64,000 nucleotides of DNA from an uncultured Acidobacteriota bacterium (GTDB lineage Bacteria > Acidobacteriota > Thermoanaerobaculia > UBA5066): assembly GCA_963776915.1 (NCBI GenBank), contig CAVZPE010000019.1:7994-71993 (forward strand), given 5' to 3'. Below are positions 20,594 to 63,354 of the stretch, piece by piece. A program made the position numbers and the translations under genes. Below the pieces are notes generated by a model that saw nothing but the letters and a program-made list of their open reading frames with translations, was not told the DNA's origin and made no database searches. How positions within the stretch are numbered: the first letter of the stretch is position 1; each line of letters opens with the position of its first letter.

Positions 20594-20711
20594 GAAGAGG
20601 GGATTTTCTTAGAGGGTGAAGAGGGAAACAGGCGCGCCCAGGCGACCCTCGCGCGAGGTGGCGGTCCGGCCTGAACTTCCTCCTAAACCATTCTAAGAAA
20701 ATTCTTTCTTC
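20594..20711. repeat. About 118-bp element with terminal inverted repeats (copy E1)
   Basis: ATTTTCTTAGA (20603-20613) and TCTAAGAAAAT (20692-20702) are a perfect inverted repeat; GAAGA/TCTTC outer ends; similar to 40428-40550. Confidence 0.65.
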
Positions 20712-54054: not shown

Positions 54055-55068
54055 TCAGAGTCCCTTCTCGACGAGGAGCGCGGCGAAGTCGGCGAGGCGG
54101 GCGGAGTATCCCCACTCGTTGTCGTACCACACGAGGACCTTCGCGACGCGCTGGGCGAGGACCATGGTGGAGTCGCGGTCGACGATCGCCGAGTGCGTGT
54201 CGCCGAGGATGTCGCTCGAGACGAGCGCCTCGTCGGCGACGCGGAGGATGCCCTTGAGCGCGGGGGTCTCGGCGGCGTTCGCGAGCGCCCCGTTGATGGA
54301 GTCCGGCGTGGCGTCCTTCTGCAGAATCGCGACGATGTCCGTGATCGAGCCGTCGGGAACCGGGACGCGGAGCGCCATGCCGTCCATCCTTCCCTTCAGC
54401 TCGGGAAGGACGAGCGCCGTGGCCTTCGCGGCGCCCGTCGAGGTCGGGACGATCGAGAGCGCGGCGGCGCGCCCTCTCCTGCGCTTGCGCGTCGGGGCGT
54501 CCATGAGCGACTGGCTCGACGTGTACGCGTGGACCGTCGTGATCATGAGGTGCTCGACGCCGAACGTCTCGTGGAGGACCTTCGCGACGGGGGCGAGGGA
54601 GTTCGTCGTGCAGGAGGCCATCGAGACGACGTGGTGCTTCGCGGGGTCGTACGTGTGGGCGTTCACGCCGAGGACGAACGTGCCGTCCGGATCGTCCGCG
54701 GGCGCCGAGATCACGACCTTCTTCGCGCCGGCCGCCAGGTGCTTGGCGGCGTCCGCGCGCTTGCGGAAGGCGCCCGAGCACTCGACGACGACGTCCGCTC
54801 CCGAGGCACCCCACGGGAGCGCGGCAGGATCCTTCGAGGAGAAAAACGGGATCTTCATGCCGTCGACGACGAGCTCGTGGTCCGTGACCGAGACCCGGTG
54901 GTTCCACCAGCCGTGGACGGAGTCGTACTTGAGGAGATAGGCGAGGTCCCCAAGATCCGCGAGGTCGTTGATTCCGGCAACGACGGCGCCCCGCTGCAGG
55001 AGGTGCTTGAAGAGACAGCGGCCGATGCGGCCGAACCCGTTGATCCCGACGCGAACCGGAGTCGTCAT
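54055..55068 (-). CDS. gap: Type I glyceraldehyde-3-phosphate dehydrogenase
   Basis: INGFGRIG, YDSVHG, ASCTTN, TTVHAYT, PTSTGAA and WYDNEWG. Confidence 0.95.
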   Translation of the reverse strand: MTTPVRVGINGFGRIGRCLFKHLLQRGAVVAGINDLADLGDLAYLLKYDSVHGWWNHRVSVTDHELVVDGMKIPFFSSKDPAALPWGASGADVVVECSGAFRKRADAAKHLAAGAKKVVISAPADDPDGTFVLGVNAHTYDPAKHHVVSMASCTTNSLAPVAKVLHETFGVEHLMITTVHAYTSSQSLMDAPTRKRRRGRAAALSIVPTSTGAAKATALVLPELKGRMDGMALRVPVPDGSITDIVAILQKDATPDSINGALANAAETPALKGILRVADEALVSSDILGDTHSAIVDRDSTMVLAQRVAKVLVWYDNEWGYSARLADFAALLVEKGL

Positions 55069-55162
55069 GAGAAAAGACCTCCGGGGCCGTGCGTCCGCAC
55101 GCGCCCCGGTGGGATCTTAAAGGCCGGGAGGGGAGCCGGCCTGAATCCGATGCATCAGTCCG

Positions 55163-55771
55163 TCATTTCCCGGCGACCGCCACGGGCGCCGCGGGCGGCT
55201 GCGGGTCGGGCACGAGGTTCGAGACGGGAGGGATCGAGCGAAGGTACGCGTAGATCGACTTGAGGTCCTCGTCGGTCAGGTTCCGGTACGCGGGCCACGG
55301 CATGGGCGGGAGGATCTCGCGCGACACCCCGAAGTGCTTGCCCCTCCGGATCGCATTCACGAAATCCTCCTCGCGCCAGATCCCGAGGCCGGTGTTCTGG
55401 TCGGGCGTGAGGTTCGCGGCGTAGCTGACGCCCCAGGGGCCGGCGAACGCCGTGTTCGTCGCGGCGCCGGACCAGAGCCACGGGCCCTGGGCGGCTGGGG
55501 CAGGCGGCATCTTCAGGGCGGCCGGGTGGCCCGAGAGCATCCGCGTCATGTCCGGCTCGGGGCCCTTGGCGCCCATCTTCCACGGCGTGTGGCAGTCGTT
55601 GCAGCCCATGGCCGAGACGAGGTACTTGCCGCGCTCCACACGAGATTGAACGGCGTCCTTGCGCGAGGCCTGCGCGGCGGTGGACGAGAAGAGGATGGCG
55701 ACGGCGGCGGCGAGACCGGCGCCGGCGGCGACGGCGATCGCGGTGCGGGAGGCCCTGCGGGTTTCGTTCAT
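55163..55771 (-). CDS. Exported c-type cytochrome (single CxxCH)
   Basis: Signal/TM, RGKYL...CNDCH, ANLTPD and MPW distal Met. Confidence 0.85.
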   Translation of the reverse strand: MNETRRASRTAIAVAAGAGLAAAVAILFSSTAAQASRKDAVQSRVERGKYLVSAMGCNDCHTPWKMGAKGPEPDMTRMLSGHPAALKMPPAPAAQGPWLWSGAATNTAFAGPWGVSYAANLTPDQNTGLGIWREEDFVNAIRRGKHFGVSREILPPMPWPAYRNLTDEDLKSIYAYLRSIPPVSNLVPDPQPPAAPVAVAGK

Positions 55772-55817
55772 GGTCTCCTGTCCTTTCGTGTCGTGCGTGG
55801 CGTGCTGCCTCGGGCGT

Positions 55818-56624
55818 TCAGGCGGCGGCGGCGTGCGCGAGCGCGGCGAGGAGCGCCTGCTGGCCCGGGGCGGCCACACGCCCCTCGAGCGGGAACGAGG
55901 CGGCGCGCGCGATGACGCGGCCCGCGGCGGAGGCCTCGACCGGCGGCAGGTGCCCGCTGAGGAGCCACGAGATCCCGAGGTCCGCATAGGCCTTGAGCGA
56001 CGCCTCGTAGCGGTCGGGCCGCATGTCCACGAGCCAGGGCGAGTTCGCCCGGCAGAAGACGGACATCCCCTCGAGGACGGCCTTCTCGTCCACGTCCGCG
56101 AACGTCTCGGCCATCGCCGGCACGAACGCGCCGAACGCGTCCGACGTGAAGAGCGCGCGGCTCTTCGAGTCGAAGAACGAGGTCGTGGACGGGTCGTCGT
56201 ACATCGGGGGCCTCAGGGCGTGGAGGACGCGGTCGCCCACGGCGAGCGCCTCGCCGGGGTTCACCCAGGTGACGCGCGGCATCGGCGGGTCGAAGGACGC
56301 GCTGAGCTTTCCGGTCGTGATCCAGTTCATCGCGAGGCGTGCCTTCGGCGCCCGCGCGAGGAGCGGCTCGAGCGCGCCCGTGTGGTCGTCGTCCGCATGC
56401 GTGACGACGATCCACGCGAGGTCCTTCGGGTCGAGAACGCTCTCGAGAGCCTCCACGAAGCCCGCGCGCCCGCGGACCGCGCCGGTGTCGACGAGGACGG
56501 GCTGCTTGCCGAGGAGGAGGTACGACTGGATCGGCAGGAAGCCGCGGCCCGGGACGGGGGCGGCCTGCGCGAGGACGACGAGGTCGGGCAGGAGGCGGTG
56601 GACGGTCGTGGCGGCTTTGTTCAT
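55818..56624 (-). CDS. Stand-alone MBL-fold di-iron-type domain (ODP / FprA N-domain-like)
   Basis: LVDTG, THADDDHTG and TSDAFG; no flavodoxin domain. Confidence 0.75.
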   Translation of the reverse strand: MNKAATTVHRLLPDLVVLAQAAPVPGRGFLPIQSYLLLGKQPVLVDTGAVRGRAGFVEALESVLDPKDLAWIVVTHADDDHTGALEPLLARAPKARLAMNWITTGKLSASFDPPMPRVTWVNPGEALAVGDRVLHALRPPMYDDPSTTSFFDSKSRALFTSDAFGAFVPAMAETFADVDEKAVLEGMSVFCRANSPWLVDMRPDRYEASLKAYADLGISWLLSGHLPPVEASAAGRVIARAASFPLEGRVAAPGQQALLAALAHAAAA

Positions 56625-56677
56625 CGTGTTCTCCTTCGTGACGCCGCAAACGTGCGGCCTTCACGGGGGAGTCGCCA

Positions 56678-56737
56678 CCTAAGAAGTCGCTACGCGCGCC
56701 TTGAGAACTTCCTATGCTTCCTAAGCGTTTCCTAAGC
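56678..56737. promoter_or_regulatory. Direct repeats (TT)CCTAWG in the divergent intergenic region
   Basis: CCTAAG at 56678, CCTATG at 56711, CCTAAG at 56720 and 56731. Confidence 0.55.
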
Positions 56738-56757
56738 GCTGCGATAATCCTTCCGCC

Positions 56758-57234
56758 GTGAAATCCGTCCTCGAGAACCTGCCGCGAATCCTCGCGGGAC
56801 ACGACGCGATCGCCGTCGGAACGCGCGACGACGCGCTGCGGCCCGCGTGCTCGATGGCGGTGGGCGTGGCGTTCCCGGGGGAGGGCCGCGCGACCGTCTA
56901 CGTGCCCGAGGCGACGGGGGAGAGGACGCTCCGCGACCTCGAGGCGAACGGAATGATCGCCGTCGTCTTCGAGGAGATCTCGACCCACCACACGATCCAG
57001 GTGAAGGGCCGTGTCGCCGAGATCCGTCCGGCCGGCGAGGACGAGCGCGCCCTCGTCGAGCGCTCGATCGGCGGCTTCTTCGCGCAGGTCGAGGCGCACG
57101 GCGCCCTGCCGAGCGTCGTGCGCAAGAAGAGGCGCTGGCCCTGCCGCGCCGTCACGTTCACCGTCGCGGAGGTCTTCGAGCAGACGCCGGGCCCGAAGGC
57201 GGGGACGCCGTTCGTCGCGGGGAGCGCACGGTGA
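56758..57234 (+). CDS. Pyridoxamine 5'-phosphate oxidase-like split-barrel protein
   Basis: AIAVGTRDDALRP, LRDLEANG.IAV and TIQVKG; stop overlaps the next GTG. Confidence 0.7.
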   Translation: MKSVLENLPRILAGHDAIAVGTRDDALRPACSMAVGVAFPGEGRATVYVPEATGERTLRDLEANGMIAVVFEEISTHHTIQVKGRVAEIRPAGEDERALVERSIGGFFAQVEAHGALPSVVRKKRRWPCRAVTFTVAEVFEQTPGPKAGTPFVAGSAR

Positions 57235-58598
57235 CGCCGCGCCTTGGGGACCTCATGCGCTGCTTCCAGGGGATCATTCCGTGCGCGATCGCGACGTGCT
57301 CCGCGGAGGGCGTCCCGAACGTGACCTTCATCAGCCAGGTCCACTACGTCGGCCCTTCGCACCTCGCGGTCTCCTGCCAGTTCTTCAACAAGACGAAACG
57401 GAACCTCGAGGAGAACCCGTTCGCGACGGTCGAGTTCTGGGACCCCGTGACCTTTCAGGCGTTCCGCGCGGGCCTGAGGTACGTGCGCTCGGAGACGTCC
57501 GGCCCCCTCTTCGAGACGATGGCCCACCGCATCGAGGTCATCGGCTCGCACACCGGGATGGCCGGCGTCTTCAAGCTGCGCTCGGCGGACGTGTGCGAGG
57601 TCCTCTGGCTCGAGGAGGTCGAGGGATTCCTCGACGAGAGCGCCGAGCCGCCCGAGGCGCCGATCGCGGACGGGCCGATGAACGAGTTCCGCGCCCTGTC
57701 CCTCGTGTCCGGGCGCATCAACCGGGCGCGCGACCTCGAGAGCCTCTACCGGGACGTCCTCGAGGCGCTCGAGGAGGTCTTCCGGTTCCGCCACTCGATC
57801 GTCTTCCTCGCGGACGAGAGGGCGGGGACCCTCACGGCGATCGCGAGCCACGGCTACGGCGAGAGCGGGATCGGCGCGGAGGTCGGGATGGGCGAGGGGC
57901 TCGTCGGGTACGTCGCGGCCAAGCGCGTCCCGATCCGCCTCTCCGGGATGGACCAGCTCCTGCGCTACGGCCGCGCGGTCCGCGGCCGCGTCGAGGTCGC
58001 GGGCGACGCGTCCGCGCTGACGGCCGAGGTCCCGCTCCCGGGCCTCCCGGACGCCGAGAGCCAGCTCGCGCTCCCGCTCGTCGTCGAGGACCGGCTCCTC
58101 GGCGTCCTCGCGATCGAGAGCCGCAACCCGCTCGCGTGCGCGGAGTGGCACGAGGCGTTCCTCTCGGTCCTCGCGAACCAGATCGCGATCGGGATCGACC
58201 GGCTGTCGGAGGCCGAAGAGGAGCCGGCCCCGGCCGAGCCCTGCGCGGCGCCGGCATCGGCCGCGGGCCCGCCGCGGGCGTTCCTGTATTTCCGGAACGA
58301 CGATTGCGTGTTCGTGGACGGGGAGTACCTCGTCCGCAACGTGCCCGCGAAGATCTTCTGGAAGCTCCTGAACGAGCACGTGAGGACCGGCCGGCGCGAG
58401 TTCACGAACCGCGAGCTGCGGCTCGACCCGTCGCTCGGGCTGCCGCCCGTCAAGGACAACCTCGAGAGCCGGCTCATCCTTCTCAAGAAGCGTCTCGAGG
58501 AGCGGTGCTTCGGCGTGCGCATCGTGCCGGTCCGCCGGGGCCGCTTCGCCCTCGAGGTCGCGGGCCCGGTCACGCTCGAGGAGCGCGAGAAAGGCTGA
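57231..58598 (+). CDS. One-component regulator: PNPOx-like, GAF and winged-helix domains
   Basis: IATCSAEGVPNV..SQ...FNKT (PNPOx); GEGLVGYVA...ALPL..EDRLLGVL (GAF); KLL...NREL...LESRLILLKKRL (wHTH). Confidence 0.75.
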   Translation: MTPRLGDLMRCFQGIIPCAIATCSAEGVPNVTFISQVHYVGPSHLAVSCQFFNKTKRNLEENPFATVEFWDPVTFQAFRAGLRYVRSETSGPLFETMAHRIEVIGSHTGMAGVFKLRSADVCEVLWLEEVEGFLDESAEPPEAPIADGPMNEFRALSLVSGRINRARDLESLYRDVLEALEEVFRFRHSIVFLADERAGTLTAIASHGYGESGIGAEVGMGEGLVGYVAAKRVPIRLSGMDQLLRYGRAVRGRVEVAGDASALTAEVPLPGLPDAESQLALPLVVEDRLLGVLAIESRNPLACAEWHEAFLSVLANQIAIGIDRLSEAEEEPAPAEPCAAPASAAGPPRAFLYFRNDDCVFVDGEYLVRNVPAKIFWKLLNEHVRTGRREFTNRELRLDPSLGLPPVKDNLESRLILLKKRLEERCFGVRIVPVRRGRFALEVAGPVTLEEREKG

Positions 58599-59094
58599 CG
58601 TCCGGCGGCGCGGCGGCGCGTTCCCGCCGCCGCTCGAGGCTCCTCCCGAGAATCCCGTCCAGCGAGAGCGCGCCGGGACCCAGGGTCAGGACGACGACCG
58701 ACACGAAGAGGAACCAGAACGGGTCGGCCCTGAGGAACGCGTCGAGGTCGTGGAAGACGCCGAAGAGAGCCGGGCGGTCCGCGGTCACGTACGCGACGAG
58801 CATGTTGCACGTGAGGAGGAGCGCGATCGGCCGCGAGAAGAGGCCGAGAAGGAGGAGCGCGCCCCCGACCAGCTCGAGCCCGCCGATGAACCACGCGTTG
58901 AGGCCCGGCATCGGAATCCCGAGCGACGTGAAGAAGTCCGCCACGCGCGCATGGTTCTCGAGCTTGCCGAGCCCCGTGACGAGGAACTGCCACCCCCAGA
59001 CGAGGCGCAGGACGAGGAGGACGACGTTCCCGAGCGGCGCGAAGGCGCGCTCGAGGCGATCCGTGAGGGCGGCGTAGAGGCCGGAGATCGACAT
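58570..59094 (-). CDS. DoxX family membrane protein
   Basis: LVLRLVWGWQFLVTGLGKL, ELVGGALLLLGL.SR and GPGALSLD. Confidence 0.88.
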   Translation of the reverse strand: MSISGLYAALTDRLERAFAPLGNVVLLVLRLVWGWQFLVTGLGKLENHARVADFFTSLGIPMPGLNAWFIGGLELVGGALLLLGLFSRPIALLLTCNMLVAYVTADRPALFGVFHDLDAFLRADPFWFLFVSVVVLTLGPGALSLDGILGRSLERRRERAAAPPDVSLSRAPRA

Positions 59095-59100
59095 GGCCTT

Positions 59101-59128
59101 GAATGACGTCGCGGGCTCGGACTATTCC
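59101..59128 (-). promoter_or_regulatory. ECF-type promoter of doxX (leaderless)
   Basis: GGAATA-N14-CGTCATTC, 6 nt from ATG; matches 60628-60655. Confidence 0.7.
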
Positions 59129-59163
59129 GGGAGGCGCGCGAAGCGGAGCACGCCTCCCGGATC

Positions 59164-60024
59164 TCAGCGCGCGGCGAACGCCGTCGCGAGGGCGGGGAGG
59201 ACGAGCTCTCCGAGGCGCATCGCCTCGTCGTCGCTCGCGCTCGTCACGAGGAAGACGAGCCGCCCGTCGGCCGCGCTCGTCCCGACGACGGCGAGCCCGT
59301 CGCGGCGTCCGCCGTTCGCGAGGCCCGCGAGCCTCACGTTCGAGGCGAGGGAGGAGCCCGGCCGCGTCGCGATCACGGAGACGAGGTCGTTCTTCGACGT
59401 GGAGCCGTTCTTCCGGTAGACGATGTGGAAGATCTTCTCGCCGGCGTGGCTGCACTCGTGCGCGGTGACCGGCACGTAGCCCGGCAGGCGGCCGGCGGCC
59501 GCCGCGACGGCCGCCTTGAGCTCGGGATCGAGCTGCGCGCCCAGGTCCGCGGCCGCGGGGACCGGCGTCTTCGACCACTTGTCGAAGCGCAGGGCGCAGT
59601 TCTTGTGGTTGAGGGCGGCGAAGAGGAACGCCTTCGCGTCGCGGGCGGCCGCCAGGTTCGTCGCGGGCGACCCCGCCGTGCGGGAGAGCAGGAGCAGTGT
59701 CCCCGCGCCGGCCGCGGCGACGAGCGAGGCCGCGAGGAGGAGCGACGTGGCGGTTCCGGCCGACGGGACGGGAGTCCTTGCGAGGCGCGCGCGGAGCTCG
59801 GCCTCGAAGCCCTCGCGCGGCTCGGGGGCGGCGGCGGCGATCCGGCGGACCGCGGCGCGCAGGTTCTCACGCGCCTTGAGCTCACTCGAGCACGCCGCGC
59901 ACCGGTCGAGGTGCTCGAGGATCTCGTGCGAGAGGTCGACGGAGAGCTCTCCGGCGAGGTACGAGTCCAGGCGGCGGCGCACCTTCGCGCAGCCGTAGTC
60001 CCTCACGTTCAGGGCGGCGTTCAC
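59164..60024 (-). CDS. zf-HC2 (ZAS) anti-sigma factor
   Basis: CAKVRRRLDSYL and HLDRCAAC, TM segment, periplasmic HEC...KIFHIVY. Confidence 0.85.
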   Translation of the reverse strand: MNAALNVRDYGCAKVRRRLDSYLAGELSVDLSHEILEHLDRCAACSSELKARENLRAAVRRIAAAAPEPREGFEAELRARLARTPVPSAGTATSLLLAASLVAAAGAGTLLLLSRTAGSPATNLAAARDAKAFLFAALNHKNCALRFDKWSKTPVPAAADLGAQLDPELKAAVAAAAGRLPGYVPVTAHECSHAGEKIFHIVYRKNGSTSKNDLVSVIATRPGSSLASNVRLAGLANGGRRDGLAVVGTSAADGRLVFLVTSASDDEAMRLGELVLPALATAFAAR

Positions 60025-60605
60025 GGCGTCCCTCCCTGGGCGGCCGGTCTCCCCGCGACGATCGTCGCGGCGGCGGCCGTCCCGCGCACCTTCTCCCGCA
60101 GCGCAGCGCGCGCCCGGGACAGGCGCGACATGACCGTGCCGATCGGCACGCGGAGGATGGCGGCGATTTCCTTGTAGGTGAATTCCTCGACGTCGGACAG
60201 GAGGAGGATCTGCCTGTGCTCGGGCGAGATCCCGTCCAGCGCGGCCGCGACCTCCTCGTCCTTGATCTCGGTGGGGGTCGGCTCCTCGGCGGCCAGCGTC
60301 TCGGCGAGCTGGGCCTCGCCCTCGGCACCGAGCGTGAACGGGACCTTCTTGCGGCTGCGCTGCTGGTTCACGTTCCAGAGGATCTTGTAGAGCCACGCGC
60401 GGCAGTTCGTGCCCCGCTCGAATTTTCCGAACGACTTCCAGGCCTGGAGAAAGACCTCGGCGGCGAGGTCCTCGGCCTCGGCGGGCCGCCGCGTGAGGCG
60501 GAGCGCGGCCCGCGTGATCTCGCGGAAATGCGGCCACGCCTCGCGGTCGAAGTCCGCCCTGAGCGCTTGTTCGGCGTCGGCCGGTCGCGGGCGGAAGAGG
60601 GACAT
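60021..60605 (-). CDS. ECF RNA polymerase sigma factor
   Basis: AEDLAAEVFL.AW, WLYKI and YKEIAAIL.VPIGTVMSRLSRAR. Confidence 0.93.
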   Translation of the reverse strand: MSLFRPRPADAEQALRADFDREAWPHFREITRAALRLTRRPAEAEDLAAEVFLQAWKSFGKFERGTNCRAWLYKILWNVNQQRSRKKVPFTLGAEGEAQLAETLAAEEPTPTEIKDEEVAAALDGISPEHRQILLLSDVEEFTYKEIAAILRVPIGTVMSRLSRARAALREKVRGTAAAATIVAGRPAAQGGTP

Positions 60606-60627: not shown

Positions 60628-60655
60628 GAATGCCGCTTCGGATCGGCATTATTCC
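60628..60655 (-). promoter_or_regulatory. ECF-type autoregulatory promoter
   Basis: GGAATA-N14-CGGCATTC upstream of the GGAGG RBS of the sigma gene. Confidence 0.7.
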
Positions 60656-60683
60656 CCGGGAACTAGAATTCCCCCCTCACCCG

Positions 60684-63354
60684 ATGAGTCTCACCGCAGG
60701 AACCAGGCTCGGCCCGTACGAGATCCTTGCCCCTCTCGGCGCCGGCGGCATGGGGGAGGTCTACCGGGCCCGCGACACGCGCCTGGAGCGGGAGGTCGCG
60801 GTCAAGGTCCTGCCGGAGGCGCTCGCCGGAAGCCCCGAGGCGCTCGCCCGATTCGCGAGCGAGGCACGGGCCGTCGCCGCGCTCTCGCATCCCAACATCC
60901 TCGCGCTGTTCGACGTCGGCGAGGAGGGCGGCGTTCGCTACGCCGTCAGCGAGCTGCTGGAAGGCGAAACGCTTCGCGTGGCGATGGCCCACGGCCCGAT
61001 CCCGCCGCGGCGGGCGCTCGACATCGCCCGTGAGGTGGCCGACGGCCTCGCGGCGGCTCACGAGAAGGGGATCGTCCACCGCGACGTCAAGCCCGAGAAC
61101 GTCTTCCTGACGAAAGACGGGCGGGCCAAGGTTCTCGACTTCGGGCTCGCCCGCCACGACGTCTCGCGCCGCGATCCGGGCGACACGCGCTCGCCGACGC
61201 TCGCGGCGATCAGCGAAAAGGGAGTCGTCCTGGGAACGGTGGCGTACATGTCGCCCGAGCAGGCGCGGGGCACGACGGTCGACTTCCGGAGCGACCAGTT
61301 CTCCCTCGGCGCCCTCCTCTACGAGATGCTCGCGGGCGACAAGCCGTTCGAGGCCGCGTCCGTGCCCGAAACGCTGACGGCCATCATCCGCGACGAACCG
61401 GAGCCGCTCGAGAAGAGAGCCCCTCACGTCCCGGCGCCGGTCCGCTGGCTCGTCGAACGGCTGCTCGCCAAGGAGCCGTCCGAGCGCTACGACGCGACCC
61501 GGGACGTCGCGCGCGACTTGAAGGGCCTTCGCGATCACCTGTCGACGTGGACGTCGAGCCCGACGCCGTCGAATCGGACGGTGAGGAGAGCCTCCCGCTG
61601 GATCCCGCTCGTCGCGGGCGGTCTGCTCCTTCTCGTCCTCGGGGCGATGGCGGGCCGGCGTACGGCCCCGCCTCCTCTCGCACCGCCGCGGCTGGCGTAC
61701 ATCACGTCCTCGGGACGGGACGGCGACCCGGCGATCTCGCCGGACGGGCGCCTGTGCGCGTTCGCCTCCAGCCGCGACGGCGTGTCCCGAATCTGGCTCA
61801 AGCAGCTGGCCGACGGATCCGAGATCGCGCTGACCGCGGGCCCGGACCTGGCACCTCGGTTCACACCCGACTCGGCGGGCATCTTCTTCATCCGGCAGGA
61901 GCCCTCCGCCCCGGCGCTCTACCGGGTGCCCACCCTCGGCGGACCGCCCCAGCGCGTGCTGGCGAATGCGGCCGAGGCCGACGTGTCCCCGGACGGAACT
62001 CGCGTCGCGTTCGTCCGAATCCGCGCCTCGGAGTCGGGGCCGACCCCGGAGCTCTGGGTGGCGGGGGCCGACGGCAGCGGAGAGCGACTGGTGGACACGG
62101 CGGAGACCGTTCAACTTCGCTCGCCACGATGGTCGCCCGACGGGAAATGGGTCGCGACGACCCGTGGGGCTGATCAACATCGGATCGCCGTGGAAGGTCG
62201 TGCTCGTCAATCCCGATACCGCCGAGAAGCGAACCCTCCCCGCCCCGGCCGGCCTCGGAGAGCTCTCGAATGTCGCGTGGACGCGGGACGGCCGCGCCCT
62301 CGTCTACGGCCGCCGGGACCAGGCCATCGTCCCGTCGAGCGAAGGCGCCTACTCCCTCCAGGATGTGGGAACGGGCGCTCTCCGGACGGTCGCGTTCTCG
62401 CTCGGCGTCGGCCAGGGGCTCGACATCGCGGCCCCCGGTCGTCTGATCGTGACGTCGCTCGTGATTCCGACAAACCTGCTCGAGATCCCGCTGGCGGGCG
62501 GTGACAAGGACGCGAAAGTGGCTCACGCGGGGATCCAGGTCAACTTCCAGCCGCTCCTCGCGGGAGACGGCGAGACGCTCGTGTTCACCTCGAACCGGGA
62601 CGGCAACAGCGACATCTGGGAGCTGAACCGGCGATCCAGCGCCGTGCGCCGGCTCACGAGCCACCCCGCGAGCGACGCCGACGTCTTCCTGAGCCGGGAC
62701 GGGAAGACCCTGCTCTGGTCCTCGGCCCGCACGGGCCACTTCGAGATCTGGGGAGCCGGAGGAGACGGAAGCGCGCCCCACCGGATCTCCGACGACGGCG
62801 TGGACGCCGAGAATCCCTCGCTCTCCCGGGACGGCTCGACGATCGTCTACGTCTCCTTCAACGAAAAGAAATCGGGCATCTGGACCATCCGTCCGGACGG
62901 AACGAACGCCCGGCTCCTCGTTCCCGGCCGCAACATCCTGCCCGAGATCTCTCCGGACGGAGAATGGGTTTCCTTCGTGAGCCAGGGATCCCTGAGCATC
63001 CGGGGTGTGCGTCTCGCGGACGGCGCGCCCGTTTTCCGGATCTCCGACGTCCCGCAGGGGAACGGCTTCATCTCGGGCCGTCACCGGTGGCTGCCGGATG
63101 GCCGCGGCATCGCGTTCCTCGGGGGCGACGGAGCCGGGACGGCGCTCTACGTGCAGGACGTCGTGCCCGGCGCGGACACCTCGGCGACGCGGCGAAAGCT
63201 CGCGACGTTCGAGCCGGACGTCGAGCTCCACTCGTTCGGCCTCGCCCCGGACATGAGCTTCGCCGTCGTCGCGGCGCGGCAGCCCGCCTCGAACCTGATG
63301 GAGATCAGCGGGCTCCCGCCCGAGATCGCTCCGGCCGGCACTCGCCGGCCCTGA
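60684..63354 (+). CDS. Hanks-type Ser/Thr kinase with TM and TolB/PD40 beta-propeller, indel near 62175
   Basis: GAGGMGEV, VAVK, HRDVKPEN, DFG and YMSPE; repeated P..SPDG. Confidence 0.9.

Follow-up and report, generated by a model that had tools for sequence, protein, structure and literature searches.

A locus in a 64,000-nucleotide stretch of DNA from an uncultured Acidobacteriota bacterium (the window, with a G+C content of about 71%) raises the question of whether a protein composed of a PNPOx-like split barrel, a GAF domain and a predicted winged helix is a transcription factor and, if so, through which site and on which genes it acts. This protein, the regulator in what follows, is encoded next to a small PNPOx-like split-barrel protein. 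Both genes are divergent from those for a stand-alone metallo-beta-lactamase (MBL) domain and a c-type cytochrome, with a repeat-containing gap in between. The locus was compared with 60 related loci, taken from contigs of one genome per species and originating from Thermoanaerobaculia and other Acidobacteriota, Planctomycetota, Myxococcota and Eisenbacteria. The Myxococcota loci include those of the cultured Anaeromyxobacter oryzae and of strain PSR-1, while L001 to L005 are the close Thermoanaerobaculia relatives of the window locus. Shown by this comparison are the pairing of the two barrel genes, the fold of each domain, a conserved operator and conserved gene targets. Taken as a whole, the locus is likely to encode a two-protein transcription-factor system of an uncharacterised family, with an operator of TTAGG repeats and the MBL and cytochrome genes as its target.

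Organisation of the locus

The small gene (positions 56758–57234, plus strand, 158 residues) starts with GTG and encodes the presumed partner of the regulator. The regulator gene (57231–58598, plus strand, 455 residues) follows directly, its GTG start codon sharing the tetranucleotide GTGA with the TGA stop codon of the small gene. On the minus strand, the MBL gene (55818–56624, 268 residues) is the first and the cytochrome gene (55163–55771, 202 residues) the second of a predicted regulated operon; a ribosome-binding site, AAAGGACAGGAG, precedes the ATG of the cytochrome gene at 55771. The intergenic gap between the small gene and the MBL gene is 133 bp long (56625–56757). A preliminary description of the locus had proposed a coupled barrel pair divergent from an MBL with an HxDxDH motif and a c-type cytochrome, and the four open reading frames and the GTGA overlap bear this out.

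The MBL reaches 49.9 bits with the Pfam family ODP (PF19583), above the gathering cut-off of 27.2. Its best alignment is with the di-iron domain of NorV, and FprA also aligns; a phmmer search gave no detectable match of the protein to a solved ODP sequence. All seven ligand positions of the flavodiiron proteins (reference set HxExDH, H, D, H) are filled, by H76, D78, D80, H81, D143, D162 and H225, which are invariant in 13 homologues. The first motif reads HADDDH, and two of the positions are altered and invariant in the subfamily, Glu being replaced by Asp78 and His by Asp143. The second product of the operon is a mono-heme c-type cytochrome, as judged from its CxxCH motif (CNDCH), its match to Cytochrom_C (PF00034; 32.6 bits against a cut-off of 21.3, E 2e-07) and its hydrophobic N-terminus, an export signal that may act as signal or anchor.

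A phased array of TTAGG repeats

The gap contains CCTAAG hexamers starting at 56678, 56720 and 56731 and a CCTATG hexamer starting at 56711, the last three of the four copies being 9 and 11 bp apart, as had been described. Read on the minus strand towards the MBL gene, these hexamers belong to a longer array, CTTAGGA-aacg-CTTAGGA-ag-CATAGGA-agtt-CTCAAGG-cgcg-CGTAGCG-actt-CTTAGGT. Its six units start at 56736, 56725, 56716, 56705, 56694 and 56683, with spacings of 11, 9, 11, 11 and 11 bp. Three strong units come first, CTTAGGA (56730–56736), CTTAGGA (56719–56725) and CATAGGA (56710–56716). They are followed by two degenerate units 11 bp apart, CTCAAGG (56699–56705) and CGTAGCG (56688–56694), and the array ends in the promoter-proximal box CTTAGGT (56677–56683), which holds the first CCTAAG. 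The earlier proposal that the repeats are an operator thus stands in that they are conserved and aimed at the MBL-cytochrome operon. It does not stand for a set of four copies, since these are part of a six-unit array on the MBL strand that ends before a hexamer resembling a −10 element.

The number of CCTAWG copies in the window is by itself not unusual (8 observed, 8.1 expected). Four of the eight lie on one strand inside 59 bp; these four include every CCTAAG copy of the window, three in number. The 18-nt tandem unit has 1 match in the window at up to two mismatches, where 0.09 are expected. Within its own 4.49-Mb assembly the window array has the highest score with a position weight matrix (PWM), 37.6 against 28.3 for the next, and this runner-up sits in an unrelated dispersed AT-rich element. 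A search of positions 54900–59200 against Rfam gave no RNA family, which leaves no riboswitch or leader explanation.

Conservation of the array

All five close relatives retain the array, including a proximal GTTAGGTGGCG or CTTAGGTGGCG box, even L004 and L005, in which the gene order is swapped and the cytochrome gene precedes the MBL gene. An equivalent of the proximal box is also kept in other phyla. A search was performed with the window motif alone (a pair of CTTAGG hexamers 10–12 bp apart, at most one mismatch in total) over the 721 kb of the 60 loci. It gave 15 matches, compared with 4.95 ± 2.1 (maximum 10) in local-composition shuffles and 7 in reversed sequences. All 15 are located immediately 5′ of, and point to, MBL, cytochrome or hemerythrin-like genes. 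They precede the MBL/cytochrome operon in L001–L003 and L005, a hemerythrin-like gene in L007, L008, L010, L011, L018, L033, L055, L057 and L059, and a SO2930-type cytochrome gene in L017.

When the best four-unit PWM array of each 13-kb locus is considered, it lies 60–140 bp 5′ of a hemerythrin-like, cytochrome or MBL open reading frame, in the correct orientation, in about 45 of the 60 loci. In a sequence logo of 48 arrays, with the last TTAG(G/C) as anchor, TTA appears at positions −33, −22, −11 and 0, which the phasing of the two degenerate window units fits. Unprompted, conservation also emerges for an A at +28 and a T at +32, which form an nAnnnT hexamer resembling a −10 element 21–22 nt past the proximal box. 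The place of the array relative to the regulatory genes varies: in Planctomycetota and Anaeromyxobacter it heads an operon that includes both of them, and in most Myxococcota it lies between the stop codon of the regulator and the hemerythrin-like or cytochrome genes.

The genomes holding L002 and L010 contain the exact tandem motif only at the operator, and the complete A. oryzae genome contains it only at the site already known. The best one-mismatch match in A. oryzae, 2.36 Mb away (chromosome 2,594,137–2,594,153, minus strand; L062:1440–1520), comprises a complete array of four units, with TTTAGGAAC as the proximal box and a −10-like CATCCT 21 nt beyond. It heads a gene for a SO2930-family diheme cytochrome, 48% identical to that of L048, followed by a homologue of the window cytochrome c. 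A motif taken from the neighbourhood of the regulator thus leads to a remote operon composed of the same gene families, as expected for a trans-acting regulator, and this SO2930-type/cytochrome c operon is a predicted remote member of the regulon. A third A. oryzae match (L063) has no phased units and was treated as chance. As a separate observation, the tandem TTAGG motif is 5–10 times rarer than the same pattern read backwards in the A. oryzae genome (G001) and in G002–G006 (for example, 18 versus 172), a difference that could stem from avoidance or from strand and codon composition alone. Taking these sequence comparisons together, the link between regulator, operator and regulon appears well supported, and we regard it as quite likely.

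Predicted target genes in the relatives

A gene for a hemerythrin-like protein of about 200–240 residues is present in 42 of the 60 loci. In 26 sequences H11, H53, E57, H80, H126 and E130 are invariant (pattern H, HxxxE, H, HxxxE), and the match to Pfam PF01814 is marginal, at 25.2 bits for a cut-off of 25.3. The window genome has no homologue of this gene; the ODP-type MBL occupies its place. Linkage of the MBL to the regulator is confined to L001–L005. Homologues of the MBL in other lineages, at 43% identity, have unrelated neighbours and no adjacent regulator. The four genes, whose joint conservation the preliminary description had named as a check, are therefore not conserved as a set, while the array and the barrel gene pair are. 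Homologues of the window cytochrome occur in the regulator loci of about half of the 60 relatives, and the cytochromes of operator-headed operons comprise the 200-residue mono-heme protein of the window type, the SO2930-type diheme protein and a 416-residue CcoP-like multi-heme protein. What is conserved is, by predicted function, a class rather than one gene set: a two-metal protein of the type that binds oxygen (O2) or nitric oxide (NO), that is, of di-iron type, together with c-type cytochromes.

Promoter geometry and probable autoregulation

On the minus strand, the candidate −10 hexamer of the MBL-cytochrome promoter is CACGTT (56654 to 56649), which matches the conserved A at +28 and T at +32 of the logo. 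It is located 22 nt past the TTAGGT hexamer of the proximal box and about 25 nt before the MBL ATG at 56624; a −35 element at normal spacing is absent. This geometry of proximal box and −10 hexamer is that of class II activation by PhoB or OmpR, for which reason activation of the target operon is slightly favoured over repression.

In the other direction, a candidate −10 hexamer GATAAT (56743–56748, plus strand) for the operon of small gene and regulator lies 9 nt before the GTG of the small gene, so that the transcript would be leaderless or nearly so. Similar TAnnnT-like boxes (GATAAT, TAGAAT, TACGAT, TATAGT) are found about 8–12 nt before the start of the small gene in many relatives, which suggests leaderless or very short-leader transcripts for this gene across phyla. 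The two outermost strong units of the array (56719–56736) cover the spacer and −35 zone of this divergent promoter, and their occupancy should therefore also affect synthesis of the regulator itself.

Domain structure of the regulator

The N-terminal domain of the regulator (residues 9–130, approximately) matches PNPOx_N at 31.7 bits, the cut-off being 28.1. Its model is a split barrel (pLDDT 88.7), and all 69 Foldseek matches at E ≤ 1e-3 are split-barrel proteins, the top ones being HupZ (which holds heme), Swol_0183 (flavin mononucleotide, FMN), MSMEG_3380 (F420), HutZ and the FMN-binding protein of Desulfovibrio. The split-barrel fold of this domain is settled. No residue pattern diagnostic of a cofactor was found in the barrel, and no histidine suitable as an axial ligand is strictly conserved. 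The second domain (residues 166–323) matches GAF_2 at 54.9 bits against a cut-off of 28.6, and GAF domains of the PDB match it at E 4e-13. Pfam recognises PNPOx_N and GAF only; a receiver (REC) domain is not found, and the protein does not classify as a response regulator.

The C-terminal domain (residues 345–455, approximately; nucleotides 58263–58595) was modelled with AlphaFold2 on an alignment of 49 sequences. The model (pLDDT 90.7) contains a small beta-sheet, three helices and a C-terminal beta-hairpin. Structures matching it over the whole domain are OmpR-family DNA-binding domains, namely BaeR (104 columns, TMq 0.58–0.59), PrrA, ArlR and rra. These matches have TMq values of 0.47–0.59, all at E > 0.1, and are interspersed with other winged helices, generic ones such as ScpB, ESCRT-II and Stn1 among them. 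The OmpR-family domains rank among the top matches, and for this reason the label OmpR-like winged helix is given, by topology. The domain falls outside Pfam Trans_reg_C and constitutes a separate sequence family. Its putative recognition helix, DNLESRLxLLRKRL, is nearly invariant across phyla.

In a HMMER scan of 1.84 billion cluster representatives, the C-terminal domain was found in 1,126 (792 of them at E ≤ 1e-10). The proteins that contain it are the standard ones of 440–470 residues, proteins of about 300 residues with GAF and C-terminal domain, a STAND NTPase-TPR protein of 852 residues and proteins of 595–651 residues. The 852-residue protein (P0213) and the GAF-only proteins such as P0157 end in the winged helix of the regulator, which is therefore a modular output domain that extends beyond the PNPOx-GAF architecture. 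Source annotations of the regulator family read only 'GAF domain-containing protein' or 'adenylate cyclase', and full-text literature searches found no paper on the PNPOx-GAF-winged-helix architecture. This agrees with the earlier statement that no characterised example is known, and the family is uncharacterised. The same description had taken the large protein for a one-component DNA-binding regulator, a prediction that the winged-helix model and the operator context support.

Pairing with the small split-barrel protein

The small protein matches PNPOx_N (PF01243) at 33.2 bits against the cut-off of 28.1 and contains a conserved QxKG motif and a C-terminal FxQTPGPxAG tail. The tail (residues 140–149; window 57175–57231) is nearly invariant in the related loci and lies just before the overlap with the start of the regulator gene; it is retained in the fusion protein P0150. 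In 59 of the 60 loci, over four phyla, the small gene is found directly 5′ of the regulator gene, and in 53 of these 59 a start codon of the regulator overlaps the stop codon of the small gene by 4 nt. The two proteins also occur fused through a linker of 30–40 residues. The N-termini of the fusions P0150 (651 residues) and P0175 (629 residues) align with the window small protein at E 8e-27 and 3e-15, respectively, while P0272 (595 residues) is fusion-like by its Pfam matches and its sequence, no alignment having been made. The pairing of the two proteins is strict across the comparison set.

Strict co-occurrence, translational coupling and fusion make it likely that the two proteins form a physical complex. 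Split-barrel proteins are dimeric, and by analogy a heterodimer between the barrel of the small protein and that of the regulator N-terminal domain is rather more probable than another arrangement.

Weighing of the evidence and alternative explanations

Several observations weigh against a regulatory role as described. The 108-residue C-terminus of the regulator matches no Pfam family at E values up to 10, Trans_reg_C (PF00486) included. A profile of 49 sequences of this region retrieved no relevant sequence, and no OmpR-family chain, from the PDB, and a Foldseek search of the model against the PDB gave no match at E ≤ 1e-3. Assignment of a DNA-binding function consequently rests on topology and context, and the label 'winged helix-turn-helix' in the preliminary description is not confirmed by sequence but is supported by the topology of the confident model. 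The structures nearest to the N-terminal barrel hold variously heme, FMN or F420, so that no cofactor is singled out. BLAST detected no similarity between the small protein and the N-terminal domain of the regulator, and paralogy of the two barrels is therefore not shown at the sequence level. A sigma-70 consensus scan of 55000–58800 found no promoter. About a quarter of the loci have no clear array nearby. The PWM was built partly from sites in the same 60 loci; it is to that extent circular, and the search with the window motif alone and shuffled controls is the uncircular test. Finally, the link between motif and regulator is a correlation, and another factor could bind the repeats.

The best of the alternatives, although improbable, follows from this last point. 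The TTAGG array would be real and conserved, but bound by a different factor or serving as a special promoter, for example for an extracytoplasmic function (ECF) sigma factor, and the PNPOx-GAF protein would be only a co-regulated or neighbouring sensor, the C-terminal domain of which would not bind the repeats. The correlative nature of the link is what speaks for a different factor; against one, the nearly invariant recognition helix of the regulator fits the nearly invariant motif. In support of an ECF promoter, frequent forms of the proximal box are TTAGGAAC and TTAGCAAC, and the hexamer beyond it is often CACGTT or CATGTT, a combination reminiscent of the GGAAC...CGTT promoters of ECF sigma factors; in addition, an ECF sigma/anti-sigma pair is encoded nearby, at 59164–60605. 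However, the distance from AAC to CGT is about 22 nt, compared with the 16–17 nt of ECF promoters, and a phased series of four to six copies is foreign to sigma-factor promoters; on these two grounds an ECF-type promoter made up of the proximal box and CGTT was rejected. Among the loci compared, moreover, L002 alone has the ECF pair (L001 gives a weak sigma match), whereas the array tracks the regulator over four phyla and three gene orders.

A second alternative, which we judge quite improbable, takes the two barrel proteins mainly as an enzyme or a cofactor-handling system that helps to mature or turn over the heme and iron proteins encoded next to them. They would be, for example, a heme-degrading protein or a flavin- or F420-dependent oxidoreductase with the GAF domain as an allosteric element, while the C-terminal domain would serve for interaction with other proteins. 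Structurally, the N-terminal domain is indeed closest to the heme-binding or heme-degrading proteins HupZ and HutZ and to FMN or F420 reductases, and heme and iron proteins are indeed the neighbours. Nevertheless, the C-terminal domain has a winged-helix topology with a basic conserved helix, and it also ends the STAND-TPR and GAF-only proteins, which are typical regulator architectures. A conserved phased array with a −10 box accompanies the genes, and the remote operator of A. oryzae fits a trans-acting regulator.

It is hardly credible that the window repeats belong to a dispersed AT-rich family of this genome (core GATTTCTTAGAAGG), of which they would be local copies, and are no operator. 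An element containing CTTAG is present many times in the genome, and 56677–56689 reads ACTTCTTAGGT on the minus strand, similar to the core, but the family was rejected as source by score (37.6 for the array, at most 28.3 for all copies of the element), by unit structure and spacing, both of which differ, and by conservation, position and orientation being kept in L001–L005 and the array recurring in other phyla beside the same gene families.

Neighbouring genes and dispersed elements

The dispersed AT-rich family, with core GATTTCTTAGAAGGT(TTAGGAGG), has many copies, among them those at C15:340874, C3:49894, C19:28702 (window position 20709, approximately) and C1:17962. It shares CTTAG with the operator and differs in unit structure. 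The second candidate array of the window genome, at C15:340874, lies inside such an element and is not an operator. Convergent with the regulator gene is a gene for a DoxX-family membrane protein (58570–59094, minus strand), the 3′ ends of the two overlapping by 29 nt (58570–58598); it is kept in L002 and L003 only. Further on, the ECF sigma and anti-sigma genes (59164–60605, minus strand) adjoin a gene for a fusion of a Ser/Thr kinase with a TolB-like beta-propeller (60630–62504, plus strand), and these are kept only in the closest relative. The ECF pair and the kinase-TolB gene are not linked to the regulator system.

Proposed mechanism and significance

In the mechanism that we favour, the small split-barrel protein is co-produced with the regulator by translational coupling and most likely provides the second half of a barrel dimer, the first half being the N-terminal domain of the regulator. 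The winged helix would bind phased direct (C)TTAGG(A) repeats about 11 bp apart, of which there are six units here (56677–56736, minus strand). The promoter-proximal unit would lie 22 bp before the −10-like hexamer, where a −35 element would normally sit. Bound in this way, and by analogy with PhoB at its pho boxes, the regulator would probably bring in RNA polymerase and so turn on the operon of the MBL and the periplasmic c-type cytochrome. Through the two outermost strong units, which lie over the promoter from which the small gene and the regulator gene are divergently transcribed, it probably also regulates its own synthesis.

Sensing of the signal probably depends on a flavin or heme in the barrel pair, on the GAF domain, or on the two together. 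Since the targets are di-iron proteins of the O2- or NO-binding type and cytochromes, they point to oxygen, NO, peroxide or redox state as the cue; a redox or gas signal is proposed only tentatively, at somewhat below even chances. A further step, which is speculative and on balance unlikely, would be a new class of gas- or redox-sensing factors, in which a heterodimeric barrel with an interface flavin or heme, together with the GAF domain, gates a winged helix without phosphorylation, and the di-iron target feeds back as an O2- or NO-binding partner of the sensor. Such feedback would explain why two unrelated di-iron folds are found at the same operator position.

The regulator belongs to a large family: it is matched by more than 6,000 clusters at 90% identity, in some cases perhaps through the GAF domain alone, and the 1,126 matches to the C-terminal domain are clusters at 50% identity. 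Soil and sediment bacteria of at least four phyla carry the family. It can now be assigned a predicted operator, for which a promoter geometry is defined, a predicted regulon made up of di-iron and periplasmic cytochrome c proteins, and a probable obligate partner, and these predictions make the system directly testable in cultured Anaeromyxobacter. The natural replacement of a hemerythrin-like target by one of the ODP/flavodiiron type argues that the common theme is a two-metal centre reactive towards O2 or NO, not one protein family.

Comparison with known systems

Among known systems, PhoB with its pho boxes and OmpR at ompF and ompC are similar in the topology predicted for the C-terminal domain of the regulator (N-terminal beta-sheet, three helices and C-terminal hairpin). 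They are also similar in the arrangement of their sites, with head-to-tail direct repeats about 11 bp apart and a proximal unit in the place of the −35 element, about 21–22 bp before the −10 element. The differences are that the window regulator has no receiver domain and no phosphorylation but a split barrel, a GAF domain and a separate partner, and that its C-terminal domain is not recognised by Pfam Trans_reg_C or by PDB sequences.

NorR of Escherichia coli senses NO through its GAF domain and activates the divergently encoded flavorubredoxin gene of norVW. It belongs to the sigma-54 enhancer-binding proteins, contains an AAA+ domain and a Fis-type helix-turn-helix, and binds inverted repeats. 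The likeness to the window locus is that a one-component GAF regulator is divergent from a flavodiiron-type MBL gene and the window MBL aligns best with NorV. However, the window regulator has neither the AAA+ domain nor the sigma-54 machinery, using instead an OmpR-like winged helix, direct repeats and a split-barrel pair, and the window MBL lacks the flavodoxin and rubredoxin domains of NorV.

HupZ, HutZ and HugZ and the small FMN-binding proteins give the best structural matches of the regulator N-terminal domain (Foldseek E 1e-7 to 1e-5, TM 0.5–0.7) and are dimeric barrels with heme or flavin at the interface. They differ in being stand-alone binders or enzymes, without fusion to a GAF or DNA-binding domain, and are only 11–20% identical to the N-terminal domain. 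When the window MBL is set beside ODP (PF19583) and the flavodiiron core, two of its ligands are found changed to Asp and it has no chemotaxis context, while it agrees with them in passing the Pfam threshold and in filling all seven ligand positions.

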